63,304 bases of DNA, taken from the IMG/VR virus record IMGVR_UViG_3300042808_000075. The stretch is one strand, 5' to 3'. The notes under the pieces were generated by a model. It made no database searches and was not told where the DNA came from. It worked only from the letters and a program-made list of their open reading frames with translations. The translations under genes and the position numbers were made by a program. This document shows, one piece after another, positions 9,790 through 58,146 of this stretch. Each line of letters opens with the position of its first letter. Positions within the stretch are counted from its first letter, which is position 1. The stretch comes from an uncultured virus (IMG/VR IMGVR_UViG_3300042808_000075) (taxonomy: Duplodnaviria > Heunggongvirae > Uroviricota > Caudoviricetes).

Positions 9790-10170
9790 TTATAACACAA
9801 ATTTAAAAACATGTAAACTTTTGAATTCCACATTAATTACTTTATTAACAACAGTTTTTAATTCTTGTTTGCTTTTGTATCGTTTACTAGCAGTAAATAT
9901 ATGTTTACCCCAATTATCTTTTAAATATTGATAACCTTCTGGTGATTGACTATATATTCTATCTAAATGATTACTATTTATATATGTTTCATGAAACCAT
10001 TGCTTTTTTTTAGAATTGAAAAAATATATAACATGATATTGGTATATTTTTTCAAAGTCTAAATGTTTAAATATATAATCATATTCTTTTTGAGAATAAT
10101 CAAATACATCAATTATATAAGACCAATAATCATTTTCAAATTTATTTAATTTTATTTTCATATTGTTCAT
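9790..10170 (-). CDS. ~118-aa repeat-family protein (array 1)
   Basis: Family motifs; likely start 10161. Confidence 0.85.
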   Translation of the reverse strand: MNNMKIKLNKFENDYWSYIIDVFDYSQKEYDYIFKHLDFEKIYQYHVIYFFNSKKKQWFHETYINSNHLDRIYSQSPEGYQYLKDNWGKHIFTASKRYKSKQELKTVVNKVINVEFKSLHVFKFVL

Positions 10171-10516
10171 TCCCTATTAAATCTATATTTATTAACCTAT
10201 TTACAATTGTTTTTAATTCTTGTTTATCTGAATATTCAATATGAATTTTAAAAATACCTTTAGCAAAGTTTTCTTTCAAATGTTGATAACCTTCTGGACA
10301 ATGATTATATATTTTTTCTAAAATAGTGTTATCTATGTATGTTCTTCTGAATAAATATTCTGTTTTTTTATTGTAAAATCGTATCATCCATTCTTTATTT
10401 AATTTATCAAAACTTAAATATTTATGCACATAATCAAATTGCTCTTGTGCATAATATGCTACAAATTTACCGTAATATCCAAAATGATTAAAATATTTAT
10501 ATAATTTTATTTTCAT
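10142..10516 (-). CDS. ~118-aa repeat-family protein (array 1)
   Basis: Family motifs. Confidence 0.85.
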   Translation of the reverse strand: MKIKLYKYFNHFGYYGKFVAYYAQEQFDYVHKYLSFDKLNKEWMIRFYNKKTEYLFRRTYIDNTILEKIYNHCPEGYQHLKENFAKGIFKIHIEYSDKQELKTIVNRLINIDLIGNEQYENKIK

Positions 10517-10519
10517 TAA

Positions 10520-10903
10520 TTACTCCTTTGTTAATAAAATTGTATTAATTAATCTATTAACAATAGTTTTTAATTCTTGTTTATCTGAGTAAAAAACAAA
10601 CATTTTAAAAACACCTTTACCAAAATTATTTTTTAACCATTGGTATCCTTCTGGTGAGTGAGTATCTATACCTTCTTTTAAATAAGGTAAATAAGAAATA
10701 AACGTTGTAAATGTAAACTTAAACCATTCTTCTGTTTTTTTATCATTAAAATATATCCATTGATTTTTTTTTATTGTTTCAAAATCCAAATATTTAAAAA
10801 TATAATCATATTGTTCTTGGTTAAGTTGTGTTGTTCCTACTCCTAATCCTATATATTTATAACAATACTCATTATCAATATTTTTATTTAACTCAATTTT
10901 CAT
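10520..10903 (-). CDS. ~118-aa repeat-family protein (array 1)
   Basis: Family motifs. Confidence 0.85.
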   Translation of the reverse strand: MKIELNKNIDNEYCYKYIGLGVGTTQLNQEQYDYIFKYLDFETIKKNQWIYFNDKKTEEWFKFTFTTFISYLPYLKEGIDTHSPEGYQWLKNNFGKGVFKMFVFYSDKQELKTIVNRLINTILLTKE

Positions 10904-10906
10904 TAA

Positions 10907-11278
10907 TTACTCCTTTGCTAATAAAATTGTATTAATTAATCTATTAACAATAGTTTTTAATTCTTGTTTATCTTGATACAAAATTGTTAGTTTAAATACA
11001 CCATTACCCCAATGATTTTTCAACCAATTATATCCATCTAGCGAACTATTATATATATCAATTAAACAATCTTCATTTAAATAATCTTCAGTTATATATG
11101 TTTCATAAAACCATATTTTTATTTTCCGATTGCCAAAAAACAAATAAGAACCTTTAAATAGTTTTTCAAATTTAAGATGTTTAAAAATATAATCATATTG
11201 TTCTTGAGTTTTTACTATATATTCAATGCTGTAATAATTACAATAATTATGATAACATTTTATTGTTTTAATTCTCAT
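10907..11278 (-). CDS. ~118-aa repeat-family protein (array 1)
   Basis: Family motifs. Confidence 0.85.
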   Translation of the reverse strand: MRIKTIKCYHNYCNYYSIEYIVKTQEQYDYIFKHLKFEKLFKGSYLFFGNRKIKIWFYETYITEDYLNEDCLIDIYNSSLDGYNWLKNHWGNGVFKLTILYQDKQELKTIVNRLINTILLAKE

Positions 11279-11628
11279 TGTTCATTCCTTATTAATTCTA
11301 TATTTATTAACCTATTTACAATGGTTTTTAATTCTTGTTTGTCTGTATGGTTAAGCAATGTTTTAAAAACACCTTTGCCCCAATGATCTTTTAGGTATTG
11401 ATAACCTTCTGGTGATTTTTTGCGTATATATTTAAATGAATTATTATATATATATGTTTCATGAAACCATTTTTCTGTATTTTTATCATTAAAACTGCAA
11501 TGGCAAGATGTTTCTAATTTATCAAAATTTAAATATTTAAAAACATAATCAAATTGTTTTTGTGTATATTTTTTTTCTTCTACACGATAAAAACACCATT
11601 TTTTTACTATCTTTAATTTAATCTTCAT
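11275..11628 (-). CDS. ~118-aa repeat-family protein (array 1)
   Basis: Family motifs. Confidence 0.85.
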   Translation of the reverse strand: MKIKLKIVKKWCFYRVEEKKYTQKQFDYVFKYLNFDKLETSCHCSFNDKNTEKWFHETYIYNNSFKYIRKKSPEGYQYLKDHWGKGVFKTLLNHTDKQELKTIVNRLINIELIRNEQ

Positions 11629-12011
11629 TGTTCATTTTTCTTTATTAATGTCACATTAATAACTTTATTAATTACTGTTTTTAATTCTTGTTTATCATTA
11701 TAATAAAACATTGTTTTGAAATGGCTAGTGGTTATAAAAATATTTTTACCCCAATTTTGTTTTAACCACTCATAAGCTTCTGGCAAACAATGCGTAATAA
11801 TATGATGTAACCACCATTCGTTCCCATATGTTTTATAAAACCGTTTTTCTACTTCTTTGTCAAGAAAATATATACGACTATCTTTTATTTTGTCAAAATT
11901 TAAATATTTAAAAATGTAATCAAATTGTTCTTGTGTATATTTTATATTAGGATATTTAAAATAAAATTCTCCTTTATCTTCATTGAGTTTTTGATACATT
12001 TCAATTTTCAT
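11625..12011 (-). CDS. ~118-aa repeat-family protein (array 1)
   Basis: Family motifs. Confidence 0.85.
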   Translation of the reverse strand: MKIEMYQKLNEDKGEFYFKYPNIKYTQEQFDYIFKYLNFDKIKDSRIYFLDKEVEKRFYKTYGNEWWLHHIITHCLPEAYEWLKQNWGKNIFITTSHFKTMFYYNDKQELKTVINKVINVTLIKKNEQ

Positions 12012-12014
12012 TAT

Positions 12015-12371
12015 TTACTCCTTTGTTAATAATTTAATATTAATAAGTTTATTAACAATAGTTTTTAATCCTTGTTTATCTGGATATCGAACAGGAAATC
12101 TAAATTTATTTTTACCCAAATTTTCTTTTAACCATTGATACCCTTCTGGTGATTGATCATATATAGATATTAAATGATCACTATTTATATATGTTTTTCT
12201 AAACCATTCTTCTGTTTCTTCATTATTAAATATTATATACCAATCTTTATCTAATTTATCAAAATCTAAATATTTAAAAATATAGTCGAATTGTTCTGGT
12301 GTATGATTTATTTCATCTATGTTACAACTGTAACTATAAAAATTATTATGTTCAAATGTTTTAATTTTCAT
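12015..12371 (-). CDS. ~118-aa repeat-family protein (array 1)
   Basis: Family motifs. Confidence 0.85.
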   Translation of the reverse strand: MKIKTFEHNNFYSYSCNIDEINHTPEQFDYIFKYLDFDKLDKDWYIIFNNEETEEWFRKTYINSDHLISIYDQSPEGYQWLKENLGKNKFRFPVRYPDKQGLKTIVNKLINIKLLTKE

Positions 12372-12374
12372 TAT

Positions 12375-12728
12375 TTACTCCTTTGTTAATAATTTTATAT
12401 TAATAACTCTATTCACAATAGTTTTTAATTCTTGTTTGTCTTGATACAAAACAAGAATTTCAAATATACCATTACCCCAATTTTCTTTTAACCATTGATA
12501 CCCTTCTGGTGATTGATTGTGTATTTTAGACAACCTATCGTTATTTGTATATGTCTTATAAAACCAATTTTTTATTTGTTTATTATTAAAATATATTGCC
12601 CAATCTTTATCTAATTTATCAAAATCTAAATACTTAAAAATATAATCATATGTTTCTTTGGTATAGTGATATTTAACTATATCATAATGCCAATAATCAT
12701 TATATGTTTTTTTAATTTTTATTTTCAT
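12375..12728 (-). CDS. ~118-aa repeat-family protein (array 1)
   Basis: Family motifs. Confidence 0.85.
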   Translation of the reverse strand: MKIKIKKTYNDYWHYDIVKYHYTKETYDYIFKYLDFDKLDKDWAIYFNNKQIKNWFYKTYTNNDRLSKIHNQSPEGYQWLKENWGNGIFEILVLYQDKQELKTIVNRVINIKLLTKE

Positions 12729-12732
12729 TATT

Positions 12733-13089
12733 TTATCCTTTTAATTCTACATTGATTATTTTATTAATTACAGTTTTAAATTCTTGTTTATCTAAATAAC
12801 AAACATATAATTTAAATACACCATTACCCCAATGTTCTTTTAACCATTCATAACCTTCTGGTGATTTATTACATATTGTTTCTAAATTAATGTCATTTAT
12901 ATATGTTTTTAAAAACCATTTTTCTGTTTTTTTATCATTAAAATATATCATCCTAATTTTATCTAATTTATCAAAATCTAAATATTTAAAGATATAGTCG
13001 AATTGTACTTGTGTATAATTCCATTCATTTAAATTATAACGCCAATAATTGTTATATCGTTTAATTTTAATTTTCATATATTGCCACAT
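12733..13089 (-). CDS. ~118-aa repeat-family protein (array 1)
   Basis: Family motifs; likely start at internal MKIKI. Confidence 0.85.
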   Translation of the reverse strand: MWQYMKIKIKRYNNYWRYNLNEWNYTQVQFDYIFKYLDFDKLDKIRMIYFNDKKTEKWFLKTYINDINLETICNKSPEGYEWLKEHWGNGVFKLYVCYLDKQEFKTVINKIINVELKG

Positions 13090-13423
13090 TAATCACTCTA
13101 TTTACAATGGTTTTAAATTCTTGTTTGTCTTGATAATAAATCCATAATTTAAAAACACCTTTACCCCAATTATTTTTTAACCATTTATAACCTTCTGGTG
13201 AATCATTATATATATCATCTAAAGTATAACTACATATATATGTTTTATGAAACCATTCTTCTGTTTTTTTATCATTAAAAAATATATGCCAACTTTTTTC
13301 TAATTTGTCAAAATTCAAATGCTTAAAAACATAATCAAATTGTTCTTGATTGTATTTTGTTTCTTCTGTACAATAAAAATAACAATTTCCATGTTTTTGT
13401 TTTTTAAGTTTTAATATCATCAT
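13067..13423 (-). CDS. ~118-aa repeat-family protein (array 1, first gene)
   Basis: Family motifs; SD GGAG. Confidence 0.85.
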   Translation of the reverse strand: MMILKLKKQKHGNCYFYCTEETKYNQEQFDYVFKHLNFDKLEKSWHIFFNDKKTEEWFHKTYICSYTLDDIYNDSPEGYKWLKNNWGKGVFKLWIYYQDKQEFKTIVNRVINVAIYEN

Positions 13424-13458: not shown

Positions 13459-13487
13459 ATTTTATCACAAAATCTTAAAAACGTAAA
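13459..13487 (-). promoter_or_regulatory. promoter of array 1
   Basis: TTTACG-17 nt-TAAAAT with TG extension. Confidence 0.6.
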
Positions 13488-13490
13488 TAA

Positions 13491-13514
13491 AAAAGCGCAC
13501 TTACATGCGCTTTT
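13491..13514 (-). terminator. intrinsic terminator
   Basis: AAAAGCGCA/TGCGCTTTT stem with T tract. Confidence 0.75.
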
Positions 13515-21272: not shown

Positions 21273-21623
21273 TTAATCTTTAAGGTGATGAATCAATGCA
21301 TATGACAAAAGTAGATTTTTACATTCTTCTGCTTCATTTTTATATTCAAGCGGGAATTCTATGATTTTAACAACTGAACTCGAAAGTTTAATTGGTTTAG
21401 TAATTATATCAATATGTTGATATTTGCTTTTTAGTTTAGCTTCTAACTGTTTAAAATCATTAAACTCAAACGCTTGAAGGTAATCTTGTCTTAATGAAGA
21501 ATATGTCCTAGTGTAGATAGGAAAATTATTACCGTGATTAAATTCGATAATAAATATTAATTTTAATACATTTTTATTGCTATTACTATTACTTAAAATA
21601 ATATCTTTTAATTTGACTTTCAT
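21273..21623 (-). CDS. hypothetical protein (follows array 2 but is not a family member)
   Basis: Lacks family motifs. Confidence 0.7.
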   Translation of the reverse strand: MKVKLKDIILSNSNSNKNVLKLIFIIEFNHGNNFPIYTRTYSSLRQDYLQAFEFNDFKQLEAKLKSKYQHIDIITKPIKLSSSVVKIIEFPLEYKNEAEECKNLLLSYALIHHLKD

Positions 21624-21978
21624 TATTTACACCCCTTTTCAATCCTATATTGAAGATTCTATTAACAATAGTTTTTAATTCTTGTTTGTCTAGATATTCA
21701 AAAGGTAATTTAAATACTCCATTTCCCCAATTTTCTTTTAACCATTCATAACCGTCTTGTGATTCTTTGTATATTGTTTCTAAAAACATATGGTTTGTAT
21801 ATTTTTTGCGAAACCATTTTTCTACTTTACAATCGTTAAAATATATAAACCAATCTTTATCTAATTTATCAAAATCTAAGTTTTTATACACATAATCATA
21901 TTGCTGTTGCGTATAGTTTAATTCAAATGTATTTTTATAACAATACCAATACTTATTGCGTTCTATTTCAATCTTCAT
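21589..21978 (-). CDS. ~118-aa repeat-family protein (array 2)
   Basis: Family motifs. Confidence 0.85.
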   Translation of the reverse strand: MKIEIERNKYWYCYKNTFELNYTQQQYDYVYKNLDFDKLDKDWFIYFNDCKVEKWFRKKYTNHMFLETIYKESQDGYEWLKENWGNGVFKLPFEYLDKQELKTIVNRIFNIGLKRGVNNESQIKRYYFK

Positions 21979-22334
21979 TGTTTATTCCTTATGTGTTTCA
22001 TATTTATATTAATTGTTTTATTTACTATTGTTTTTAACTCTTGTTTATCTGTATAATAAACATATAATTTAAAAACACCTTTACCCCAATTGTTTTTTAA
22101 ATATTGATAACCTTCTGGTGATTGATGATAAATAGCTTTTAAATAATTAGTATTTATATATGTTTTACAAAACCATTCTTCTGCTGTTTTATTACTAAAT
22201 TTTATCCAGTCATCTTTATCTAATTTGTCAAAATATAAATATTTAAATATATAATCATATTCTTTTTGCGTATATTTTAATTCATCTATACAATAATCCC
22301 AATAGTTTTCATATTGTTCTATTTTAATTTTCAT
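21975..22334 (-). CDS. ~118-aa repeat-family protein (array 2)
   Basis: Family motifs. Confidence 0.85.
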   Translation of the reverse strand: MKIKIEQYENYWDYCIDELKYTQKEYDYIFKYLYFDKLDKDDWIKFSNKTAEEWFCKTYINTNYLKAIYHQSPEGYQYLKNNWGKGVFKLYVYYTDKQELKTIVNKTININMKHIRNKQ

Positions 22335-22693
22335 TATTTGACCCTTATTAATTCTACATTAACTACTTTATTTACAATGGTTTTTAATTCTTGTTTATCT
22401 GGATAATGAATATCTAATTTAAAAACACCTTTACGCCAATTGTCTTTTAACCATTGATAACCTTCTGGTGAATCATTATATATTTCATCTAACCAACGAA
22501 TATTTATATATGTTTCATAAAACCATTCTCCTGTTTCTTTATCATTAAAATATATATAATAATCTTTATCTAATTTATTAAAATCTAAATATTTAAAAAC
22601 ATAATCATATTGTTTTGGTGCATAATTCCATTCGTTTATCTTATAACGCCACCAATATTTATTATGGTGGTGTTGTAGTATTTTTATTTTCAT
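22334..22693 (-). CDS. ~118-aa repeat-family protein (array 2)
   Basis: Family motifs. Confidence 0.85.
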   Translation of the reverse strand: MKIKILQHHHNKYWWRYKINEWNYAPKQYDYVFKYLDFNKLDKDYYIYFNDKETGEWFYETYINIRWLDEIYNDSPEGYQWLKDNWRKGVFKLDIHYPDKQELKTIVNKVVNVELIRVK

Positions 22694-22695
22694 AA

Positions 22696-23049
22696 TTATC
22701 TCCTTATTAATTCTACATTAATAATTTTATTCACTATTGTTTTTAATTCTTGTTTATCTAAGTAAAAAAAATTTATTGTAAATATTCCTTTACCCCAATT
22801 CTCTTTTAACCATTGATATCCTTCTGGTGATTTATTATATATATCATCTAACCAATTTTCTTCTATATATGTTTTATGAAACCATTCTCCTGTTTCTTTA
22901 TCATTAAAAGTTATATGTTTATTTTTATCTGATTTATCAAAATCTAAATATTTAAAAACATAATCATATTTTTTTGGTGCATAATTCCATTCGTTTATCT
23001 TATAACGCCACAAATATTTATTGTGTTGTTGTAGTATTTTTATTTTCAT
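22696..23049 (-). CDS. ~118-aa repeat-family protein (array 2)
   Basis: Family motifs. Confidence 0.85.
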   Translation of the reverse strand: MKIKILQQHNKYLWRYKINEWNYAPKKYDYVFKYLDFDKSDKNKHITFNDKETGEWFHKTYIEENWLDDIYNKSPEGYQWLKENWGKGIFTINFFYLDKQELKTIVNKIINVELIRR

Positions 23050-23051
23050 AA

Positions 23052-23417
23052 TTACCTCCTTATTAACTCTACATTAATAATTTTATTAACTATTGTTTTA
23101 AACTCTTGTTTGTCTGAATACCAAATTATTAAGTTAAAAATATCTTTACCCCAATTTTCACTCAACCACTCATAACCTAATGGTGATTCTTTATATACAT
23201 CTTCTAAATAATTAGTATCTGTATATATTTTATAAAACCATTCTTTTGTTTCTTTATTGCTAAAATGTATAGGCCAATATTTGTCTATTTTATCAAAACC
23301 TAAATATTTAAAAATATAATCGTGTTGTTCTTGGTTATAATGCTTCCATATATTATTAATATTATATTTCCAATAATGATTATATGTTTTATTGATTGTT
23401 ATTTTCACAATTCCCAC
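23052..23417 (-). CDS. ~118-aa repeat-family protein (array 2)
   Basis: Family motifs. Confidence 0.85.
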   Translation of the reverse strand: MGIVKITINKTYNHYWKYNINNIWKHYNQEQHDYIFKYLGFDKIDKYWPIHFSNKETKEWFYKIYTDTNYLEDVYKESPLGYEWLSENWGKDIFNLIIWYSDKQEFKTIVNKIINVELIRR

Positions 23418-23764
23418 CCTATTAATTCTATATTAATGACTTTGTTAACAATAGTTTTCAACTCTTGTTTGTCTTGATAATAAATATTAATTTTAAATAA
23501 ACCTTTACACCAATTGTCTTTTAGATATTGATAAACTTCTGGTGATTGATTATATATGTTTTCTATTAAGTGAATATTTGTATATATTTCATGAAATGAA
23601 CATTCTATTTCATTATTATCAAACAATATCCATTCGTTTTTGTCTAGTTTTTCAAAATCTAGATATTTAAACACATAATCATATTCTTTTTGTTTATACT
23701 CTGATTCCTCTATGCAATAGCTCCAATAGTTATTGTTTTTATATTGTTTTATTTTAATTTTCAT
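23405..23764 (-). CDS. ~118-aa repeat-family protein (array 2)
   Basis: Family motifs. Confidence 0.85.
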   Translation of the reverse strand: MKIKIKQYKNNNYWSYCIEESEYKQKEYDYVFKYLDFEKLDKNEWILFDNNEIECSFHEIYTNIHLIENIYNQSPEVYQYLKDNWCKGLFKINIYYQDKQELKTIVNKVINIELIGWEL

Positions 23765-24120
23765 TTTTTATTTTTCCTTATTAATTCTATATTGATTATT
23801 TTATTAATAATAGTTTTAAATTCTTGTTTGTCTGGATACCATATATCTATTTTAAACTTACCATTTCCCCAATTGCCTTTCAACCATTCATAACCTTCTG
23901 GTGATTGATTGTGTATTTTACTTAAATAATGACTATTTGTATATGTTTCATGAAACCATTCTTCTGTTTGTTTATTATTAAAAAGTAACCACCAATTTTT
24001 ATCTAGTTTATCAAAATTTAAATATTTATATACATAATCGAATTGTTCTTGTGCATAATTTAATTCTGCATTATCATCGTAACTATGAAAATTATTATAT
24101 TTAAATATTACAATTTTCAT
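23761..24120 (-). CDS. ~118-aa repeat-family protein (array 2)
   Basis: Family motifs. Confidence 0.85.
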   Translation of the reverse strand: MKIVIFKYNNFHSYDDNAELNYAQEQFDYVYKYLNFDKLDKNWWLLFNNKQTEEWFHETYTNSHYLSKIHNQSPEGYEWLKGNWGNGKFKIDIWYPDKQEFKTIINKIINIELIRKNKK

Positions 24121-24476
24121 TAAATATAACCTCTTTTTAATTCTATATTTATAAATTTATTAACAATGGTTTTTAACTCTCGCTTATCTTGATAGTAAAC
24201 TAGAATAACAAAAACACCATTACCCCAATTTTCTTTTAACCATTCGTATCCTAAAGGTGAATCTTTATATATGTTTTCTAATAAACGTTCATATATATAT
24301 TTATTATGAAACCATTTTTCTGTTTCTTTATTTTTAAAAAATATAAAATTATCTTTATCTAATTTGTCAAAATCCAAGTGCTTAAACATATAATCATATT
24401 TTTTTTGTTCAAGAGTTAATTCATTTATGTTATAACACCAACTCCAAAGTTTATATTTTTTTATTTCTATTTTCAT
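24120..24476 (-). CDS. ~118-aa repeat-family protein (array 2)
   Basis: Family motifs. Confidence 0.85.
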   Translation of the reverse strand: MKIEIKKYKLWSWCYNINELTLEQKKYDYMFKHLDFDKLDKDNFIFFKNKETEKWFHNKYIYERLLENIYKDSPLGYEWLKENWGNGVFVILVYYQDKRELKTIVNKFINIELKRGYI

Positions 24477-24852
24477 TATTGTTCTCCTTTACTATAATAT
24501 GCTTTCTTTTTAATTCTAAATTTATTACTCTATTAACTATTGTTTTTAATTTTTGCTTATCTGAGTAAAAAACAAACAATTCGAAAATACCATTTCCCCA
24601 ATTGTTTTTTATCCACTCATAACCTGAAGGTGAGTAATTATATATATTTTCTAGATGACAACTATCTATATATGTTTTGCAAAACCAATTTTTTATTTTT
24701 TTATTACTAAAATGTATAGTCCAATCTTTATCTAGTTTATCAAAATCTAAATGTTTAAATATATAATCATATTCTTTTTGTTTATAATATATTTCATTTA
24801 TACCGTGATAACACCAAAAATTACCATCTTCTGTTTTTATTTTAATTTTCAT
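24451..24852 (-). CDS. ~118-aa repeat-family protein (array 2, C-terminal extension)
   Basis: Family motifs. Confidence 0.85.
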   Translation of the reverse strand: MKIKIKTEDGNFWCYHGINEIYYKQKEYDYIFKHLDFDKLDKDWTIHFSNKKIKNWFCKTYIDSCHLENIYNYSPSGYEWIKNNWGNGIFELFVFYSDKQKLKTIVNRVINLELKRKHIIVKENNNENRNKKI

Positions 24853-24854
24853 TA

Positions 24855-25208
24855 TTATTTTTCCTTATTTATTAGTTTTACATTAATTATTTTATTAACT
24901 ATTGTTTTTAACTCTTGTTTATCTGAATAATGAATATTCATTCTAAAAACATTTTCACCCCAATTATTCTTTAACCATTGATAACCTTCTGGTGATTGAT
25001 TATATATATCTTCTAACCAATCTTTCTCTATATATTTCCTTTTAAAACGTTGTTTTATTTCTAAATCAGTGAAATATATATACTTACTTTTATATAGTTT
25101 ATCAAAATCTAAATATTTTAATGCGTAATCAAATTCTTTTTGTATATAATATAAGTCATTTATACAGTAACGCCAATATTTATGATATTGTTCAATTTTA
25201 ATCTTCAT
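24855..25208 (-). CDS. ~118-aa repeat-family protein (array 2)
   Basis: Family motifs. Confidence 0.85.
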   Translation of the reverse strand: MKIKIEQYHKYWRYCINDLYYIQKEFDYALKYLDFDKLYKSKYIYFTDLEIKQRFKRKYIEKDWLEDIYNQSPEGYQWLKNNWGENVFRMNIHYSDKQELKTIVNKIINVKLINKEK

Positions 25209-25567
25209 TAATTTCTCCTACTAAAACCAAATTCTACATTAATCATTTTATTAACTATTGTTTTTAACTCTTGTTTATCTGGATAATAAACAGATAGCAT
25301 TCTAAATATTCCATTACCCCAATTTTCTTTTAGATATTGATAACCTTCTGGTGATTCATTATATATTGTTTCTAAATTAATATTGTTTGTATATGTTTTA
25401 CAAAACCATTCTTTTAATTTATAATCTTTAAAATGTACCAGAGAATCTTTATATAATTTTTCAAAATCCAAATATTTAAAAATATAATCAAATTCTTTTT
25501 GTCTATATTCCCATTCATTTACAAAATAACGATAACCATCGCTATAGTTTTTTATTTCAATTTTCAT
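25208..25567 (-). CDS. ~118-aa repeat-family protein (array 2)
   Basis: Family motifs. Confidence 0.85.
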   Translation of the reverse strand: MKIEIKNYSDGYRYFVNEWEYRQKEFDYIFKYLDFEKLYKDSLVHFKDYKLKEWFCKTYTNNINLETIYNESPEGYQYLKENWGNGIFRMLSVYYPDKQELKTIVNKMINVEFGFSRRN

Positions 25568-25922
25568 TTGTCATACTCCTTTTTAACTCCACATTTATTA
25601 CTCTATTTACTATTGTTTTTAATTCTTGTTTATCTGAATAATAAATTCCTATTCTAAAAACATCTTTACCCCAATTGTTTTTTAACCACTCATATCCTTC
25701 TGGATGATTTGAATATATAGAAATTAAAGTTTTTGCATCTGTATATTTTTTATAAAAATCATTCTTTGTTTTTTTATCTATAAAGGATATGAGAAAATGT
25801 TTATTTAACTTATCAAAATTTAAATATTTAAATGCATAATTATATTGTTCTCTTTGGTATTTTATATCGTTTAAATTGAAATACCAAAAACCTTCTGTAA
25901 AATTCACTAAATCAATTCTCAT
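25557..25922 (-). CDS. ~118-aa repeat-family protein (array 2, first gene)
   Basis: Family motifs; SD AAGGAG. Confidence 0.85.
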   Translation of the reverse strand: MRIDLVNFTEGFWYFNLNDIKYQREQYNYAFKYLNFDKLNKHFLISFIDKKTKNDFYKKYTDAKTLISIYSNHPEGYEWLKNNWGKDVFRIGIYYSDKQELKTIVNRVINVELKRSMTNEN

Positions 25923-25954: not shown

Positions 25955-25983
25955 ATTATAACATATTTATTAAAAATTGTAAA
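25955..25983 (-). promoter_or_regulatory. promoter of array 2
   Basis: TTTACA-17 nt-TATAAT with TG extension. Confidence 0.8.
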
Positions 25984-26155
25984 TGAAAAAAGTTGGGTTA
26001 TCGTTTCCCCAACTTTTTTTGTGTTTCTGTTTTCTACTGTAATCTTTTTTGCTTTTGTGAACACCACACCCAGATTTTACAACATTATCATTGCGATTTA
26101 ACTTCCCACTTGCATTAACTTGTAAATTAACCCCAGATATTTTTCCGATTTTCAC
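25970..26155 (-). CDS. small basic ArfA/BrfA-like ribosome rescue peptide candidate
   Basis: GVHKSKKDYSRKQKHKK resembles ArfA KGKGSYxRKxKH; terminator lies inside the CDS. Confidence 0.55.
   Translation of the reverse strand: MKIGKISGVNLQVNASGKLNRNDNVVKSGCGVHKSKKDYSRKQKHKKSWGNDNPTFFIYNF
25986..26020 (-). terminator. intrinsic terminator inside CDS, upstream of stop codon
   Basis: Minus strand AAAAAAGTTGGG-loop-CCCAACTTTTTT; stop codon is at 25970-25972. Confidence 0.75.
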
Positions 26156-40813: not shown

Positions 40814-41161
40814 TTATTTACTTATTAATTGTGAATTTATCACTTTATTAACAATAGTTTTAAATTCTTGCTTATCTTGATAATCTGCAAGTATTTTAAA
40901 AACACTTTTACCCCAATTTTGTTTTAACCATTCATACCCTTCTAGTGAATCATTATATATATCATTTAGCCAATCAGTATTTATATATGTTTTATAAAAC
41001 CATTCTTCTATTTCATTTTTATAAAAATATATAAAACATTTTTTATTTATTTGATCAAAATCAAGATGTTTAAAGGCATAATCATATTGTTCTTGTGTAT
41101 AATTTAATTCAACTGTATTATAACGCCAATGATTTTCCCACATAAATAAACTTATCTTCAT
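40814..41161 (-). CDS. ~118-aa repeat-family protein (array 3)
   Basis: Family motifs. Confidence 0.85.
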   Translation of the reverse strand: MKISLFMWENHWRYNTVELNYTQEQYDYAFKHLDFDQINKKCFIYFYKNEIEEWFYKTYINTDWLNDIYNDSLEGYEWLKQNWGKSVFKILADYQDKQEFKTIVNKVINSQLISK

Positions 41162-41520
41162 ATGTCACTCCTTGCTAATCTCACATTGATAATTTTATTT
41201 ACTATGGTTTTTAATTCTTGCTTATCTGGATAATGAACAAGTATTTTAAAAATACCTTTACCCCAATTGTTTTTCAGATATCCATAACCATCTGGTGAAT
41301 TATTATATACATCTTTTAAATAATCAGTATTTATATATGTTTTAGAAAACCATTCTTCTGTTTTTTTATTATTAAAAACTATTGCCCAATCTTTATCTAA
41401 TTTATCAAAATCCAAATATTTATACACATAATCATATGACTTTGGTGCATAAAGCATATTGTAACAATAATATTTTTCTTTAAAATATAATTGTATTATT
41501 TTAATCTTCATAATTAACAC
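41158..41520 (-). CDS. ~118-aa repeat-family protein (array 3)
   Basis: Family motifs. Confidence 0.85.
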   Translation of the reverse strand: MLIMKIKIIQLYFKEKYYCYNMLYAPKSYDYVYKYLDFDKLDKDWAIVFNNKKTEEWFSKTYINTDYLKDVYNNSPDGYGYLKNNWGKGIFKILVHYPDKQELKTIVNKIINVRLARSDI

Positions 41521-41867
41521 CTTTTTTTCAATTCCACATTTATCACTCTATTTACTATAGTCTTTAATTCTTGTTTGTTTTTATACCAAATATATAATTC
41601 GAATATACCTTTACCCCAATTATTTTTTAACCATTCATACCCTTCTAGTGAATCATTATATATATCTTTTAAACAATTTTCTTCTATATATGTTTTTTTA
41701 AACCATTCTGATGTTTTGTGATTTTTAAAACATATATACCAATTTTTACTTATTTTTTCAAAATCTAAATATTTAAACATATAGTCGAATTGTTCTTGCG
41801 TGTAATTATCATCTCTTATGTAATAACGATAGCTGTAGTTTCCGCTTTGTTCAATTTGAATCTTCAT
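41514..41867 (-). CDS. ~118-aa repeat-family protein (array 3)
   Basis: Family motifs. Confidence 0.85.
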   Translation of the reverse strand: MKIQIEQSGNYSYRYYIRDDNYTQEQFDYMFKYLDFEKISKNWYICFKNHKTSEWFKKTYIEENCLKDIYNDSLEGYEWLKNNWGKGIFELYIWYKNKQELKTIVNRVINVELKKRC

Positions 41868-41869
41868 TT

Positions 41870-42217
41870 TTAACCTCTTATTAATTTTATATTGATTAGT
41901 TTATTAACAATAGTTTTTAATTTCTGTTTGTCTTGATAATCTACCCAAAATTTAAAAACTCCATTGCCCCAATTGTTTTTCAAGTATTTATACCCTTCCG
42001 GTGATTTGTTGGAAATAATATCTAAACAATAATCATATGTATGTGTTTTCGCAAACCATTTTTTTGTTTCATCATTGTTAAAATGTATCGTCCACTCTTG
42101 GTTTAATTTGTTAAAATCTAAACATTTATAAATATAATCATATTGATTTTGCGTAAAACTCATTTCGTTTACATTATAACCCCAATAATTTTCATATTGT
42201 TCTAGTTTAATCTTCAC
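41870..42217 (-). CDS. ~118-aa repeat-family protein (array 3)
   Basis: Family motifs. Confidence 0.85.
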   Translation of the reverse strand: MKIKLEQYENYWGYNVNEMSFTQNQYDYIYKCLDFNKLNQEWTIHFNNDETKKWFAKTHTYDYCLDIISNKSPEGYKYLKNNWGNGVFKFWVDYQDKQKLKTIVNKLINIKLIRG

Positions 42218-42567
42218 TATTTACCTCTTATTAATTCTATATTAATCACTCTATTAACTATCGTTTTTAATTCTTGTTTATTTAGATAATAAATATCTAT
42301 TTGAAAAACGTTTTTACCCCAATTATCCTTTAACCATTCATACCCTAAAGGCGATTCATTATATATAATTTCTAAATAACGTCTATCTATATATGTTTTT
42401 TTAAACCAATTTTTTGTTTTTTCATTGTTTAAATATATAATAATATCTTTATTTAATTTTTCAAAATCTAAATATTTAAATATATAATCAAATTGTTCTT
42501 GCGTATAATTAATTTCATAAATTAAATAACACCAAAATCCACTATCTTCTGTTAATTTAATCCTCAT
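42217..42567 (-). CDS. ~118-aa repeat-family protein (array 3)
   Basis: Family motifs. Confidence 0.85.
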   Translation of the reverse strand: MRIKLTEDSGFWCYLIYEINYTQEQFDYIFKYLDFEKLNKDIIIYLNNEKTKNWFKKTYIDRRYLEIIYNESPLGYEWLKDNWGKNVFQIDIYYLNKQELKTIVNRVINIELIRGK

Positions 42568-42917
42568 TACTTACTCCTTATTAATTTTACATTACAAATT
42601 TTATTTACCACATTCTTTAGTTTTTGTTTATCTTGATTATAAACTGTAACTTTAAAAACATTTTTACCCCAATTTTCTTTCAGCCATTCATAACCTTCTG
42701 GTGATTGATTATAGATAACATTTAACCAATTACTGTATATATACGTTTCATAAAACAATTTTTCTATAGTTTTATCACAAAAATACACTTTCATGTTTTT
42801 GTCTAATTTATCAAAATCTAAATATTTAAATATATAATCATATTGTTTAACTGTATAAATGTATTCTATTTCAAGATAACGCCAATGTTTGGATATGTTT
42901 TTCAATTCAATTTTCAC
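42567..42917 (-). CDS. ~118-aa repeat-family protein (array 3, first gene)
   Basis: Family motifs; SD AAGGAG. Confidence 0.85.
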   Translation of the reverse strand: MKIELKNISKHWRYLEIEYIYTVKQYDYIFKYLDFDKLDKNMKVYFCDKTIEKLFYETYIYSNWLNVIYNQSPEGYEWLKENWGKNVFKVTVYNQDKQKLKNVVNKICNVKLIRSK

Positions 42918-42950: not shown

Positions 42951-42979
42951 AGTATAACATATATAAAAAAACAAGTAAA
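42951..42979 (-). promoter_or_regulatory. promoter of array 3
   Basis: TTTACT-17 nt-TATACT with TG extension. Confidence 0.7.
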
Positions 42980-47708: not shown

Positions 47709-47710
47709 AT

Positions 47711-53329: not shown

Positions 53330-53481
53330 ATTTCTACCTTTCGTTTATTTAAAAATATAATAAAATAAAGAATAAATTTGTATTTTTGAAAACTATTATA
53401 ATGTTTTAAAAAAACATATACAAAACAATGTCGATCATGTTACAATATCATAAAACACATTTGTAAAAAAAGAGGTAATAA

Positions 53482-53859
53482 ATGAAAATAAAACTGAAAC
53501 ATCGTTATAATAATTGGCGTTATAATATATATGAAACAGCATATAACCAAACGCAATATGATTATATTTTTAAACATTTGGATTTTGAAGAATTAGATAA
53601 AGATTTTTATATATATTTTAATAATAAACAAACAGAAACATTATTTCACAAAACATACAAAACTAATCATTGTCAGTTATATAACATATATGAAAATTCA
53701 CCTTTAGGATACGAATGGTTAAAAAATAATTGGGGTAAAAGTGTATTCTTCATTATATGTTATTATCCAGATAAAAAAGAATTAAAAACAATTATTAACA
53801 AAGTGATTAATATAGAATTATTAATATGGAATAAATTATATGAAAATAAAACTATTTGA
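53482..53859 (+). CDS. ~118-aa repeat-family protein (array 4, first gene)
   Basis: Family motifs; SD GAGGT. Confidence 0.85.
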   Translation: MKIKLKHRYNNWRYNIYETAYNQTQYDYIFKHLDFEELDKDFYIYFNNKQTETLFHKTYKTNHCQLYNIYENSPLGYEWLKNNWGKSVFFIICYYPDKKELKTIINKVINIELLIWNKLYENKTI

Positions 53860-54179
53860 AAACTCTTGATAATTCTTGGCGTTATTATATACATAGATGG
53901 GATTGTTCACAAAAACAATTTAACTATATATATAAATATTTAAATTTTGATAAATTAGATAAAGATGAATGGATACAATTTAACAATAAAGAAGTAGGAG
54001 AATGGTTTCGAAAAACATATGTAAATAATTATTGTTTAGAATATATATATGAAAATTCGCCTTTAGGGTATGAATGGTTAAAAAGCAATTGGGATAAAGG
54101 TGTTTTTGAAGTACCTATTTATTATTCAGATAAGCAAGAATTAAAAACAATAGTAAATAAAATAATTAATAAGAGGTAA
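53840..54179 (+). pseudogene. repeat-family copy with 1-nt frameshift near start (or TTG restart at 53856)
   Basis: ATG 53840 reads MKIKL; one extra T at ~53855 separates it from LKTLDNSWRY... Confidence 0.65.
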
Positions 54180-54184
54180 ATAAT

Positions 54185-54541
54185 ATGATAATTATAATAG
54201 ATAAAAACAAATCAAATCGTTGGTATAGTTTTTATATAAAGTCATTAATTTTTGATCAAAAAGAATATGATTATATTTTTAAATATTTGGATTTTAAAAA
54301 AATAAACAAAAGTGGCTTTGTACATTTTGATGATTACGAAATAGAAAAATGGTTTAGAAAAACACACATAAATAGTAATTGGTTAAATACTATACATAAC
54401 AATTCACCTTTAGGATATGAATATTTACAAAACAATTGGGGTAATGGTGTTTTTAAATTATATGTTTTTTATCCAGATAAAAAAGAATTAAAAACAGTAG
54501 TAAATAAAGTTATAAATATAGAATTAATAAGAGGTAAGTGA
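54185..54541 (+). CDS. ~118-aa repeat-family protein (array 4)
   Basis: Family motifs. Confidence 0.85.
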   Translation: MIIIIDKNKSNRWYSFYIKSLIFDQKEYDYIFKYLDFKKINKSGFVHFDDYEIEKWFRKTHINSNWLNTIHNNSPLGYEYLQNNWGNGVFKLYVFYPDKKELKTVVNKVINIELIRGK

Positions 54542-54885
54542 TGAAGAAAAAATTATACAAAACATATAATGATTATTGGTATTATAATATTTCATATTGT
54601 TTCCAAGAACAATATGATTATGTTTTTAAGTATTTAGATTTTGATAAATTATATAAAGGTTGGTTTATAGGTTTTAATAATGAAGAAATAGAAGAATGGT
54701 TTTATGAAACATATATAGAAGAAAATTGTTTAAAAGATATATACAATCGTTCACCAGAAGGGTATGGATGGTTAAAAAATAATTGGGGTAAAGGTATATT
54801 TGAATTATATATTTGGTATAAAAATAAACAAGAATTAAAGACTATAATTAATAAGATTATTAATATAGAATTAATAAGAGGTTAA
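54538..54885 (+). CDS. ~118-aa repeat-family protein (array 4)
   Basis: Family motifs. Confidence 0.85.
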   Translation: MMKKKLYKTYNDYWYYNISYCFQEQYDYVFKYLDFDKLYKGWFIGFNNEEIEEWFYETYIEENCLKDIYNRSPEGYGWLKNNWGKGIFELYIWYKNKQELKTIINKIINIELIRG

Positions 54886-54887
54886 TA

Positions 54888-55241
54888 ATGATAATTAAAT
54901 TAAAAAAAGATGATGGTTTTTGGTATTTTAAAATTAATGATAACAAATACACGCAAAAACAATTTGATTATGTATATAAATATTTAGATTTTGATAAATT
55001 AGACAAAATACACTTTATATATTTTAATAACAAAAAAACACAAGAATGGTTTCATAAAACATATATAGATAGTTATGCTTTAGATCAAATACACAATCAA
55101 TCACCAGAAGGTTATGCATGGTTAAATGAAAATTGGGGTAAAGGTGTTTTTAAATTATATATTTATTATTCAGATAAGCAAGAATTTAAAACAATAATAA
55201 ATAAGGTTATTAATATTGAATTAATAATAGGTAATAAATGA
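54888..55241 (+). CDS. ~118-aa repeat-family protein (array 4)
   Basis: Family motifs. Confidence 0.85.
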   Translation: MIIKLKKDDGFWYFKINDNKYTQKQFDYVYKYLDFDKLDKIHFIYFNNKKTQEWFHKTYIDSYALDQIHNQSPEGYAWLNENWGKGVFKLYIYYSDKQEFKTIINKVINIELIIGNK

Positions 55242-55603
55242 AAATAATAATCAGAAAAACATATAATAATTATTGTTATTATAGTTATGGCGCAAATGAA
55301 TGGTTTTATATCCAAGAACAATATGATTATAAATATAAATATTTATATTTTGATAAATTAGTAAAATGGGGTATACATTTTAATAATAAAAAAACAGAAG
55401 ATTGGTTTACAAAAACATATATAGATAATCGTTGGTTAGTTGAAATATATAATCGTTCACCAGAAGGGTATCTGTATTTAAAAGAACATTGGGGTAAAGG
55501 TGTATTTTGGTTATATGTTTGGTATCAAGATAAACAAGAATTAAAAATAGTGGTAAATAGAGTGATTAATGTAGAATTAAAAAGGATTAAAAATGAAAAT
55601 TAA
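55238..55603 (+). CDS. ~118-aa repeat-family protein (array 4)
   Basis: Family motifs. Confidence 0.85.
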   Translation: MKIIIRKTYNNYCYYSYGANEWFYIQEQYDYKYKYLYFDKLVKWGIHFNNKKTEDWFTKTYIDNRWLVEIYNRSPEGYLYLKEHWGKGVFWLYVWYQDKQELKIVVNRVINVELKRIKNEN

Positions 55604-55943
55604 AATAACACAACACAATAAATATTGGTTTTATAATATAAACGAATCATTATACACACAAGAACAATTTGATTATATTTTTAAATATTTGGATTTTGAA
55701 AAATTAGGAAAAGATTATTATATATTTTTTAATGATAAAAAAACAGAAGAATGGTTTAATAAAACATATATAAATAATATTATTTTAGAATTAATCTATC
55801 ATTATTCACCAAAAGGGTATGAATGGTTAAAAGATAATTGGGGTAATGGTGTTTTTAAAACAACTGTTTTTTATCCAGATAAACAAGAATTTAAAACTAT
55901 AGTAAATAAAATTATTAATGTACGTTTTTGTAGAAAAAATTAG
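55593..55943 (+). CDS. ~118-aa repeat-family protein (array 4)
   Basis: Family motifs. Confidence 0.85.
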   Translation: MKIKITQHNKYWFYNINESLYTQEQFDYIFKYLDFEKLGKDYYIFFNDKKTEEWFNKTYINNIILELIYHYSPKGYEWLKDNWGNGVFKTTVFYPDKQEFKTIVNKIINVRFCRKN

Positions 55944-55995
55944 GCAGTATGGGTATGTAAAAATAATTAATAAAATCATTATTTAAGAGGTAAAA

Positions 55996-56352
55996 ATGCA
56001 AATTAAAACAACACGATATAATGAGTATTGGTATTATAATATAATAAATGAAGATGAATACACACAGGAACAATATGATTACATTTTTAAATATTTAGAT
56101 TTTGATAAGTTAGATAGAGATAGTTTTGCTTTTTTTACTGATACAGAAACGGCAAAATGGTTTAAAGAAACACATATAAATAGTGATTGTTTAAATATTA
56201 TTTATAATAAATCACCAGAAGGGTATAAATGGTTAAAAAATAATTGGGGTAAAGGTTTTTTTTGGGTTGGATTAATTAATTCAATTGACAAGCAAGAATT
56301 AAAAATGATAGTAAATAAAGTTATTAATATAGAATTGATAAGGAGTAAATAA
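55996..56352 (+). CDS. ~118-aa repeat-family protein (array 4)
   Basis: Family motifs. Confidence 0.85.
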   Translation: MQIKTTRYNEYWYYNIINEDEYTQEQYDYIFKYLDFDKLDRDSFAFFTDTETAKWFKETHINSDCLNIIYNKSPEGYKWLKNNWGKGFFWVGLINSIDKQELKMIVNKVINIELIRSK

Positions 56353-56720
56353 TGAAAATTGAAATATGTAGAACAACACATTATTCTAGTTCTTGGCGAT
56401 ATTACCATTTACATGAAGGTGCTGAGTACCTTTGCCAAAAAGAATATGATTACATATTTAAAAGCTTGAAATTTGATGAATTAAATCTTCCTGACAGAAT
56501 AAGATTTATCGATACAATAATGAAAAATGAATTTTTTAACAAATATCAAATAACGCAAGATTCTTTTGGAAAAATTGATCATGAAGGAGAAGGATATGAA
56601 TGGTTAAAAAACAATTTTGGTAATGGCATTTTTAGAATTGCCATTTTTCATAAAAACAAACAAGAATTAAAAACTATTGTTAACAAAGTGGTTAATATGG
56701 AATTTAGAAGAGGTAAGTAA
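56352..56720 (+). CDS. ~118-aa repeat-family protein (array 4, divergent copy)
   Basis: EGYEWLKNNFG and KQELKTIVNK retained; middle divergent. Confidence 0.85.
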   Translation: MKIEICRTTHYSSSWRYYHLHEGAEYLCQKEYDYIFKSLKFDELNLPDRIRFIDTIMKNEFFNKYQITQDSFGKIDHEGEGYEWLKNNFGNGIFRIAIFHKNKQELKTIVNKVVNMEFRRGK

Positions 56721-57070
56721 TGAAAATTAAATTACATAATAATATAAATAATTATTGGTGCTATAAATTTATGTATGACTATACGCAAGAACAATTTGAT
56801 TATATATATAAGCACTTATGCTTTGATAAATTAGGCAAAAACATTGCTATACATTTTTGCAAACTAAAAACAGAAATATGGTTTTATGAATTATATATAA
56901 ATACTAATTATCTAAATAAAATATATGCAGAAAGTACAGAAGGTTATCAATATTTTAAAGAAAATTGGGGTAATGGTGTATTTAAATTATGGATTTATTA
57001 TATAGACAAGCAAGAATTAAAAACAATTGTTAATAAAAAAATAAATATAGATTTAATAAGGGAAAAATAA
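56720..57070 (+). CDS. ~118-aa repeat-family protein (array 4)
   Basis: Family motifs. Confidence 0.85.
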   Translation: MKIKLHNNINNYWCYKFMYDYTQEQFDYIYKHLCFDKLGKNIAIHFCKLKTEIWFYELYINTNYLNKIYAESTEGYQYFKENWGNGVFKLWIYYIDKQELKTIVNKKINIDLIREK

Positions 57071-57432
57071 TGAAAATCAAGATACAACAACAATGTTATC
57101 ATAAAAACTATAATTATACAAATATATCTGAAACACTATACACACAGGAACAATATGATTACATTTTTAAATATTTAGATTTTGACAAATTAGATAAAAA
57201 TTATTCTATACATTTTTACAAACTAGAAATAACAATATGGTTTTGTAAAACATATATAAGTAGTTGTTTTTTTAATGATATATATAAACATTCTCTCGAA
57301 GGATACGAATGGTTAAAACAAAATTTTGGGAAGAGTGTTTTTAAAATAAGAATTAATTATTCTGACAAACAAGAGTTAAAAACTATTATTAATAAAATAA
57401 TTAATATAAAATTGATAAGGAATAAACAATGA
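57070..57432 (+). CDS. ~118-aa repeat-family protein (array 4)
   Basis: Family motifs. Confidence 0.85.
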   Translation: MKIKIQQQCYHKNYNYTNISETLYTQEQYDYIFKYLDFDKLDKNYSIHFYKLEITIWFCKTYISSCFFNDIYKHSLEGYEWLKQNFGKSVFKIRINYSDKQELKTIINKIINIKLIRNKQ

Positions 57433-57800
57433 AAATTAAATTGAGAAATTACGAAAATCATTATTGGGATTATTATAATGTGAAAAAATATTACATTTAT
57501 AAACAAGAACAATATGAGTATATGCATAAATATTTAAATATGGACACATTATATAAAGGAAGATATATAATTTTTGCAAATGAAGAAATAGCAGAATGGT
57601 TTCATAAAACATATGGAGAATATTATTGGTTAGATGGTATATATAAAAATTCACCAGATGGTTATCAATGGTTGAAAAATCATTGGTGTAAAGGGATTTT
57701 TTGGTTTGGATTTATTCATTCAACTGACAAGCAAGAGTTAAAAACAATAGTTAATAAAGTAATTAATATAACTCTTAGGAGAAATAAGTGTGAAGATTAA
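57429..57800 (+). CDS. ~118-aa repeat-family protein (array 4)
   Basis: Family motifs. Confidence 0.85.
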   Translation: MKIKLRNYENHYWDYYNVKKYYIYKQEQYEYMHKYLNMDTLYKGRYIIFANEEIAEWFHKTYGEYYWLDGIYKNSPDGYQWLKNHWCKGIFWFGFIHSTDKQELKTIVNKVINITLRRNKCED

Positions 57801-58146
57801 ATTGTTAAAACCTAATTACAATTACACATATAAAGGTTTAAATACTAATCATTATTGTCAAAAACAGTTTGATTATATATGTAAATATTTAAATTTTGAT
57901 AAATTATATAAAGATTGGTTTATATACTTTAACAATAAAGAAACAGAAGATTGGTTTCATAAAACATATATAGAGGAAAATTGGCTAAAAAGTGTATATA
58001 ATGATTCACCAGAAGGTTATAAATGGTTAAAAAATAATTGGGGAAATGGTAAGTTTAAAATAGATATATGGTATCCAGACAAACAAGAATTTAAAACAGC
58101 AGTAAATAGGGTTATTAATACTAATTTAAAAAAGGACTATTTCTAG
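57790..58146 (+). CDS. ~118-aa repeat-family protein (array 4, last gene)
   Basis: Family motifs. Confidence 0.85.
   Translation: MKIKLLKPNYNYTYKGLNTNHYCQKQFDYICKYLNFDKLYKDWFIYFNNKETEDWFHKTYIEENWLKSVYNDSPEGYKWLKNNWGNGKFKIDIWYPDKQEFKTAVNRVINTNLKKDYF

Follow-up and report, generated by a model that had tools for sequence, protein, structure and literature searches.

INTRODUCTION

What use could a phage have for dozens of diverged copies of one small gene, laid head to tail? The question is raised by a 63,304-nt stretch of DNA from an uncultured virus (IMG/VR record IMGVR_UViG_3300042808_000075, Caudoviricetes), in which four tandem arrays, named W1 to W4 in their order along the DNA, encode members of a single protein family. 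The whole stretch is referred to as the window. A previous reading of the letters alone (the sequence-only reading) had described these arrays as a fixed scaffold with hypervariable segments and had proposed a phage-encoded repertoire of binding proteins on one fold. Multigene families that fill a large share of the genome are a hallmark of large eukaryotic viruses. To our knowledge, they are almost unknown in phages.

Here, the family was followed within the window and in related metagenome contigs. We consider, with a probability of about 0.4, that the arrays of this huge phage encode small cytoplasmic alpha/beta proteins of a family that has expanded massively within one lineage and would serve as a germline repertoire of binders against polymorphic intracellular targets. 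Judged from the sequences, the constant-plus-variable architecture is of the kind expected of a recognition repertoire. Within the literature searched, this is the largest such gene family that we found reported for a phage.

RESULTS

Four tandem arrays of one protein family

The 188 open reading frames (ORFs) of at least 50 aa in the window were searched by phmmer with the copy at 22334-22693(-) as query, and 41 of them were recovered as family members (E 5e-22 to 6e-83). A hidden Markov model (HMM) built from these copies returned the identical 41 and no other window ORF at E ≤ 10. The sequence-only reading had counted 10, 12, 6 and 13 copies in four tandem arrays; both methods gave exactly these numbers, and its coordinates and strands agreed for every array (Table 1). 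The arrays sum to 14,737 bp, or 23.3% of the window, where about 15 kb or nearly a quarter had been estimated. Four neighbouring genes of similar size (21273-21623, 40440-40787, 26795-27151 and 61247-61609) are non-members (hhalign probability ≤0.3%).

Nearly all copies had been called intact, and all 41 in fact have open frames, of 107-133 aa (typically about 118 aa). No two are identical, as had also been claimed: pairwise DNA identity among them is 56-87%, and protein identity to the reference copy is 44-76%. Genes within the arrays overlap or are separated by gaps of 0-5 nt, with a single gap of 53 nt. The GC content of the window is 20-31%, with its minimum in the arrays.

Distribution and copy number

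The earlier count of 41 stands for the window, but as a measure of the family it is an underestimate. A scan of Joint Genome Institute (JGI) metagenomes found 20 loci, all from two assemblies (these loci and their contigs are labelled L001, L003 and so on). The family profile matched 24 of 1,835,955,588 cluster representatives, and a word-indexed search gave 36 matches, all of them metagenome proteins without names. The fetched parts of one assembly hold 132 family records (14+27+13+11+17+50). Of all 172 records, 159 cover the full length; contig ends truncate 6, and the other 7 are internal partials. After identical sequences were dropped, 148 distinct near-full-length copies remained, 41 in the window and 107 outside it, with a maximum DNA identity of 89.6% between any two. 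The arrays of the family number at least 20 and take up about 52 kb of phage genome. Aberrant copies were found at L007:2149-2568, L014:4424-4909 and L005:150-523, the aberrations being an internal partial duplication (HMM stretches 1-75 and 50-116), a 162-aa copy with extra length and a split by frameshift.

The window itself consists of two contigs of one assembly joined within array W2, and contigs of the second assembly span breaks between contigs of the first, with 100% identity; these breaks lie in arrays. Such breaks inside arrays were located at window 23130-23159 and at contig ends in L001, L008 and L017. Because the arrays fragment short-read assemblies, copy numbers are likely to be under-counted. 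Flanking genes on the other contigs have no orthologues in the window, the sole matches being TnpB paralogues, a shared domain and antisense ORFs inside family genes. The simplest reading of these sequences is that all contigs are pieces of one very large genome, broken at its arrays.

Searches of Pfam, NCBIfam and the ESM Atlas gave no match to the family. In a Pfam scan of all 41 window members at E ≤ 5, no Imm/SUKH model appeared and no family was hit by more than three members. None of five members tested matched PHROGs, one of 41 had a single weak match in PADLOC (E 0.008), and the best E value in a sequence profile search of the PDB was 0.3. The family was absent from INPHARED (tblastn), IMG/VR and 185,579 species genomes, and no longer, fused forms of it were found. 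The sequence-only reading had recognised no enzyme motif or known family; sequence libraries and fold searches with Foldseek and VIA, described below, likewise returned no significant match.

A constant scaffold with four hypervariable segments

The family consensus is MKIK..YW.Y.I.E..YTQ.QYDY.FKYLDFDKL.K...I.FNN..T..WF.KTYIN...L..IY..SPEGY.WLK.NWGKG.FK....Y.DKQELKTIVNKVINIELIR. The scaffold motif proposed earlier matches this alignment consensus, and the four variable segments (var1 to var4) are real, falling at consensus columns 6-20, 41-47, 61-67 and 89-95. The per-column entropy profile of the window copies recurs in the 107 outside copies (r = 0.96). The alignment places indels in var1, var3, var4 and the tails, consistent with the indel tolerance that had been noted.

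A richness in Y, W, H, C and N had also been noted. Compared with the other proteins of the window, W is enriched 3.3-fold, Y 1.75-fold, N 1.6-fold, H 1.5-fold and C 1.4-fold; E, which had not been mentioned, is likewise enriched 1.7-fold. The variable columns are far from mutational equilibrium, with W at 6-11 times, E, D, H and Q at 3-4 times and I, L and F at about 0.3 times. The net charge of the constant columns is +5.0 across copies (standard deviation 1.2), and that of the variable columns differs from copy to copy, lying between -9 and +7 with a mean of -0.76. The median isoelectric point (pI) of the family is 8.9. Copies carry 0-5 Cys residues, 31 of the 148 have none, and no Cys is invariant.

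Predicted structure of the family

Two AlphaFold2 models were built, one from the alignment of the 41 window copies (predicted local distance difference test, pLDDT, 80.5; predicted TM-score, pTM, 0.71) and one from 146 copies with a different reference (pLDDT 91.4, pTM 0.80). Both share the topology b1-b2-a1-b3-a2-a3-a4-b4-a5. The first model gave no significant fold match with Foldseek (best E 2.5 against the PDB and 1.3 against BFVD) or VIA (best Z 4.0; root-mean-square deviation, rmsd, 4.0 over 75 aligned residues), nor did the second (best Foldseek E 2.4 against the PDB; best VIA Z 4.1, rmsd 5.5, 74 aligned); the VIA scores of both models lie below Z 7-8, the usual noise according to the tool. 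The fold predicted here is left unassigned by the absence of matches, which does not in itself prove a new fold.

The entropy of the 148 copies was mapped onto the secondary structure of the first model, assigned by DSSP. Along strands b2, b3 and b4, conservation and hypervariability alternate with a period of 2: W15 and Y17 are conserved and R16 and K18 variable in the first set, I47 and F49 conserved and Y46, Y48 and N50 variable in the second, and F91 and Y97 conserved and K92, D94 and H96 variable in the third. Helices a1, a4 and a5 are conserved on every face (mean entropy about 1.0 bit), including the polar residues K100, Q101, E102, K104, T105, N108, K109 and N112. In the model, the four variable segments map to beta-strands and adjoining loops. 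From this pattern we infer a variable, exposed sheet face and a second face that is constant and basic.

Selection on scaffold and variable columns

Column classes were set on the window copies, and the ratio dN/dS (omega) was measured by the Nei-Gojobori method on 19 independent nearest-neighbour pairs outside the window. Omega was estimated to be 1.41 in variable, 0.94 in intermediate and 0.15 in conserved scaffold columns. The proportion of synonymous differences (pS) was similar across classes (0.24, 0.17 and 0.28, respectively). Omega was calibrated by simulation because the genome is extremely AT-rich. Neutral simulations with the base composition of the family gave values of 1.0-1.4, depending on kappa, and four-fold sites gave a kappa of about 2.1. 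Under a null that holds only the amino-acid composition stationary, omega was 0.85-0.87, and none of 80 simulations reached 1.41. An equal-rates binomial test (p = 0.0096) was rejected as unsafe after simulations with an AT-biased spectrum. These sequence comparisons indicate that the variable face is under selection for surface-type and aromatic residues and turns over at least as fast as neutral sequence; positive selection on it is suggested.

In the conserved C-terminal helix, synonymous-codon identity was 1.00 times the expectation, indicating that conservation acts at the protein level and does not reflect gene conversion. It was raised solely in the last seven codons (1.31 times), which hold the Shine-Dalgarno (SD) site of the next gene.

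Evolution of the arrays

The tree of the 148 copies is star-like, with a median terminal branch of 0.41 and a median internal branch of 0.07. The arrays are polyphyletic: the tree has 104 label changes, where 21 would be the minimum and shuffling gives 116.8 ± 2.7. For 27 of the 148 copies (8.8 expected) the closest relative sits in the same array, and for 16 it is the neighbouring gene. Nearest neighbours agree between 30-codon blocks in just 2-5% of cases. Exact shared runs are 114 nt long, compared with 45-56 nt after codon shuffling, a control that is confounded by the adjacency of conserved codons. No sign of concerted evolution was found, nor any homogenisation of the conserved gene junctions at the DNA level. 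The tree and identities point to an old expansion whose copies are individually maintained.

Expression signals

An AGGAG/AGAGG SD site lies 7-10 nt upstream of all 41 family starts in the window. The motif TTTACA-N17-TGnTATAAT has 18 exact matches in the window, compared with 0.26 expected from shuffles. All 18 are on the minus strand (window 545-42951), 13 of them within 120 nt upstream of an ORF start, and they include the heads of W2 and W3. The plus-strand blocks 43070-49663 and 53482-58146 contain no strict match, which hints that the strand blocks of the window may be differently regulated. Extended -10 promoters and strong SD sites are typical of Bacillota. Given that the promoters are of the host type, the sequence suggests that the arrays are transcribed early or middle by host polymerase.

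Table 1. Family arrays and candidate transcription signals of the window.
Feature	Position	Strand	Description
Array W1	9790..13423	-	10 tandem family genes, 117-128 aa, each with its own SD
Promoter-like site heading W1	13459..13487	-	TTTACG-N-TGTGATAAAAT, near match to the extended -10 motif; consensus match only
Terminator-like hairpin and T-run	13491..13514	-	separates W1 from the upstream gene
Array W2	21589..25922	-	12 tandem family genes, 117-133 aa, each with its own SD
Promoter-like site heading W2	25955..25983	-	TTTACA-N17-TGTTATAAT, exact motif
Terminator-like hairpin and T-run	25986..26014	-	directly upstream of the W2 promoter; seen in the sequence, not listed by the hairpin scan
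Array W3	40814..42917	-	6 tandem family genes, 115-120 aa, each with its own SD
Promoter-like site heading W3	42951..42979	-	TTTACT-N17-TGTTATACT, in a divergent intergenic region
Weaker promoter-like site heading W4	53416..53446	+	extended -10 TGTTACAAT, poor -35, in a divergent intergenic region; fails the strict pattern
Array W4	53482..58146	+	13 tandem family genes, 107-125 aa, each with its own SD

Genomic context and probable host

The neighbours of the arrays in the window include GP88, an RNA ligase, NADAR, DFP, PIN-PhoH, NAD kinase, glutathionylspermidine synthase, a MoxR-type ATPase with a VWA/DUF2201 partner, two cREC receivers, a NusG-like protein, a primase, a UvsX/RecA-like fragment and TnpB. 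PHROGs of phage type were found for PhoH, primase, UvsX-like recombinase, RNA ligase, an SbcC-like protein and a helicase, in agreement with the earlier view that the family is phage-encoded. The window PIN-PhoH shares 44% identity with its counterparts in two Bacillus jumbo phages, AR9 and PBS1. By gene content, the region is the replication and nucleotide-metabolism part of a large lytic phage; no structural genes were seen in the window and the fetched contigs. Scans for tRNAs and Rfam families gave no matches.

The related contigs carry intein-containing gyrB, ribonucleotide reductase and ThyX, together with gyrA, ClpP, ClpX, LigA, RecJ, an SbcC-like protein, a helicase, several TnpB, a chemoreceptor, PAS sensors and radical SAM enzymes. 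The best cellular relatives of the ClpP are from metagenome-assembled genomes of uncultured Bacilli/Bacillota (61-62%), followed by other phyla (53-60%). The sequences derive from a huge phage, probably of a low-GC Bacillota host, a host assignment for which the ClpP evidence is weak. In L016:10001-17337, an array (10001-12172) is followed by a 151-aa ORF, ClpP (12832-13461) and ClpX (from 13469), the last interrupted by a LAGLIDADG element. Inteins or homing endonucleases also interrupt gyrB, the large subunit of ribonucleotide reductase (in pieces) and ThyX (L016:1226-4396, L015:11799-17210 and L003:6588-7817). A chemoreceptor in two adjacent ORFs (dCache, then HAMP and an MCP signalling domain) and a double-PAS sensor lie at L010:3953-5986 and L014:8418-10145; these are unusual sensory cargo for a phage.

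Several other features of the window were recorded. A TnpB/IS605 OrfB-type gene at 15039-16526(+) runs against the flow of minus-strand genes, and at least five more TnpB lie on related contigs (L011:2257-3429, 4326-5423 and 9805-11016; L012:2491-3621; L015:17415-18620), which makes the phage rich in TnpB copies. At 17831-20137(-), the gene for an AAA ATPase (17831-19447) precedes those for two cREC_REC ('cyclic-phosphate processing receiver') paralogues (19320-19718 and 19811-20137, 33% identical), and the three may form an RNA-repair or signalling module. The 1.1 kb at 2000-3144 (GC about 22%) has no ORF longer than 41 aa and no Rfam match and is dense in AT-rich inverted repeats, for example with 44-nt arms at 2424-2467 and 2486-2529; it could be an origin or regulatory region. 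The minus strand also carries two sets of paralogues unrelated to the family, one of three genes (61247-61609, 61610-61864 and 61865-62191; 44-59% identical) and one pair (4631-5176 and 5173-5667; 28% identical). The RecA/UvsX-like ORF at 62285-62824(-) matches the C-terminal part of the RecA model alone (positions 195-258), and an open frame at 63113-63304(-) runs off the end of the window. The recombinase gene may be split, perhaps by an intein or homing endonuclease.

DISCUSSION

The sequence-only reading had proposed a repertoire of binding proteins on one fold, and the architecture found here fits that proposal: the scaffold has an omega of 0.15, and the variable positions lie in predicted strands and loops with period 2 and are enriched in W and polar residues. 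In a working model of such a repertoire, each array would be transcribed as a polycistronic unit from a host-type sigma-A promoter with an extended -10, probably early, and each copy would be translated from its own SD site. The variable residues would form the exposed face of the sheet. The target would be polymorphic and intracellular, for example host defence or toxin effectors, and with this face each copy could recognise its own variant and neutralise it. The constant face would have a shared role, be it folding, self-association or docking on one common partner. The repertoire might then be the viral counterpart of bacterial homogeneous polyimmunity loci. A more elaborate form of this model takes the roughly 50 kb or more, with at least 148 genes, as a germline 'antibody-like' library built on a single new fold, one face being constant and basic and the other a hypervariable sheet face, rich in Trp and Tyr, that selection keeps diverse. 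The library would be expressed early and would either neutralise a polymorphic set of host defence or toxin proteins or, by way of the constant face, hand them to a common machine such as the phage ClpXP. We regard this more elaborate form as possible but doubtful.

Several observations weigh against the binder repertoire. At a kappa of about 2.1 the neutral null gives an omega of 1.18-1.26, and 1.41 is reached in 5-10% of simulations; the value in the variable columns is thus not robustly above neutrality because the AT-biased spectrum raises the null. The raw ratio was above 1, as diversifying selection would have it, but after calibration for AT bias it is only marginally above neutrality. 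That var1 to var4 form one surface, which the sequence-only reading had put up for checking, is in keeping with their predicted place in strands and loops with period 2; covariation between them (mutual information with average product correction), on the other hand, stays within the column-permutation null (observed maximum 0.22, null maxima 0.18-0.24), so that support for a single surface comes from the predicted topology and the alternation with period 2. The Imm/SUKH models of Pfam are not matched by any member. Beside the arrays, nothing was recognised as a toxin, defence or anti-defence gene; the neighbours belong to replication and nucleotide metabolism. The host-type promoters are common to many neighbouring genes and not specific to the arrays. 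Moreover, a constant basic face would suit nucleic-acid binding as well.

Of the known systems compared, the homogeneous polyimmunity locus appears to be the closest in architecture. As described by Zhang et al. (2012, PMC3482391), such loci are tandem, distantly related paralogues of one small immunity fold (SUKH, Imm6, Imm11 and similar), proposed to be read as a single message and to give pre-emptive cover against changing toxins. The phage genes resemble them in forming same-orientation tandem arrays of diverged small alpha+beta paralogues, which are equivalent copies and not subunits of a complex and are probably co-transcribed; the window has four such arrays of 6-13 abutting or overlapping genes, with a promoter-like site at each head. 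They differ in being phage-borne and in their number, at least 20 arrays with 148 copies; the usual bacterial arrangement is a single locus of a handful of genes. They also differ in matching no immunity model and in lacking an adjacent toxin or recombinase gene, such as often lies near polyimmunity loci, no toxin domain or XerC/D-type recombinase having been recognised among the array neighbours.

The closest phage precedent in kind would be the lineage-specific zinc-ribbon expansion of Bacillus phage G, with about 35 copies, which a survey of 224 jumbo phages calls 'unprecedented' (Iyer et al., 2021, PMC7824862). In each case a single huge phage with a Bacillota-type host carries a small domain that has expanded to many copies. 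However, the present fold is not a zinc ribbon, as the Cys-free copies and the lack of an invariant Cys indicate, and the present family has about four times more copies, long head-to-tail arrays and defined hypervariable segments. A published description of such a phage family was not found in the literature searched, a search that left most subscription journals and supplements outside.

Less direct likenesses were also considered. The MGF110, MGF360 and MGF505 families of African swine fever virus and the ankyrin, BTB and F-box families of poxviruses and giant viruses are multigene families thought to handle host range and defence. They likewise consist of tandem paralogues that fill a sizeable share of a large viral genome, but the phage family differs from them in its prokaryotic host, an unrelated fold, much smaller proteins and the lack of any known adaptor domain. 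With phage anti-defence proteins such as anti-CRISPRs and sponges, the family shares small size, a cytoplasmic nature, the lack of enzyme motifs, probably early expression and an ORFan-like distribution; known anti-defence loci, however, are a few unrelated genes and not more than 100 paralogues of one fold, and no PADLOC or PHROG link was seen. The targets of diversity-generating retroelements also combine a fixed scaffold with localised hypervariability in a phage protein, whereas the diversity here is germline, spread over many diverged gene copies, and involves indels and all residue types. That mechanism was excluded, since no reverse transcriptase domain was present among 60 window, 68 locus and 6 further window proteins and the copies differ by indels and over their whole length. 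Integron-like cassettes were excluded as well, because the gaps (0-5 nt, one of 53 nt) leave no room for attC and no integrase was found among the window proteins.

Other roles for the same architecture have to be weighed against the binder repertoire. The two-faced conservation, with helices conserved on all faces including their polar residues, and the steady charge of +5 would also be expected of adaptors, whose constant basic helical face docks on one machine (phage ClpXP, host RNA polymerase or the ribosome) while the variable face picks host proteins for degradation or re-routing. The F-box, BTB and ankyrin families of giant eukaryotic viruses are adaptors that choose host proteins in this manner, and the phage ClpP and ClpX genes directly downstream of the L016 array speak for a partner of this kind. 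However, that adjacency is seen at one of at least 20 arrays only, the ClpS chains in the Foldseek lists look like noise (E 3.8-9.8, probability ≤0.04, TM ≤0.27; missing from the VIA top 50), and no fusions to any partner domain were found; we consider an adaptor role unlikely. We think it similarly improbable that the proteins bind nucleic acids, as sequence-specific regulators or as structural DNA or RNA binders with diversified specificity like the zinc ribbons of phage G. Aromatic-rich beta-sheet faces are typical of RNA and ssDNA binders, and the basic pI and constant columns would suit this role; so would the KH-domain entries in the VIA list, although their scores (Z 3.1-4.0) are below the noise level stated for the tool. 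For the phage G expansion, a role as transcription factors or structural DNA-binding proteins has been suggested (PMC7824862). Against this, the searches of Pfam and NCBIfam detected no helix-turn-helix, zinc-ribbon or other DNA/RNA-binding family, and the variable face is slightly acidic, with D and E at 3-4 times, an unusual feature for a surface that contacts nucleic acid.

The virions of giant phages contain many paralogous internal proteins, and small basic proteins could accompany the DNA. The copies might accordingly be virion-associated, either packaged and ejected internal proteins or decorations of capsid or tail, diversified for structure or host entry. The arrays, however, lie among replication and nucleotide-metabolism genes behind host-type promoters, with no structural PHROG nearby, and 148 variants of one structural protein would have no obvious rationale, making this role very improbable in our view. 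Least probable of all is a selfish or neutral expansion that brings the phage no benefit. The confinement of the family to one lineage and the roughly neutral rate of its variable columns would agree with it, but the copies are kept intact (159 of 172 records full length) under an omega of 0.15 in the scaffold and with an SD site on each window copy, the variable columns keep a strongly non-neutral composition, recent duplicates are lacking, and about 52 kb is costly to carry.

Arrays of this kind break metagenome assemblies, so that similar expansions may be systematically under-counted. If different copies indeed have different targets, they would represent a new counter-defence strategy, in which breadth is achieved by an inherited library instead of a few specialised inhibitors. 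They would also offer a direct handle on the host systems that limit huge phages, and a small, naturally diversified binder scaffold. Should the antibody-like library prove true, it would be the first viral polyimmunity or adaptor repertoire in prokaryotes and the largest paralogue family known in any phage.

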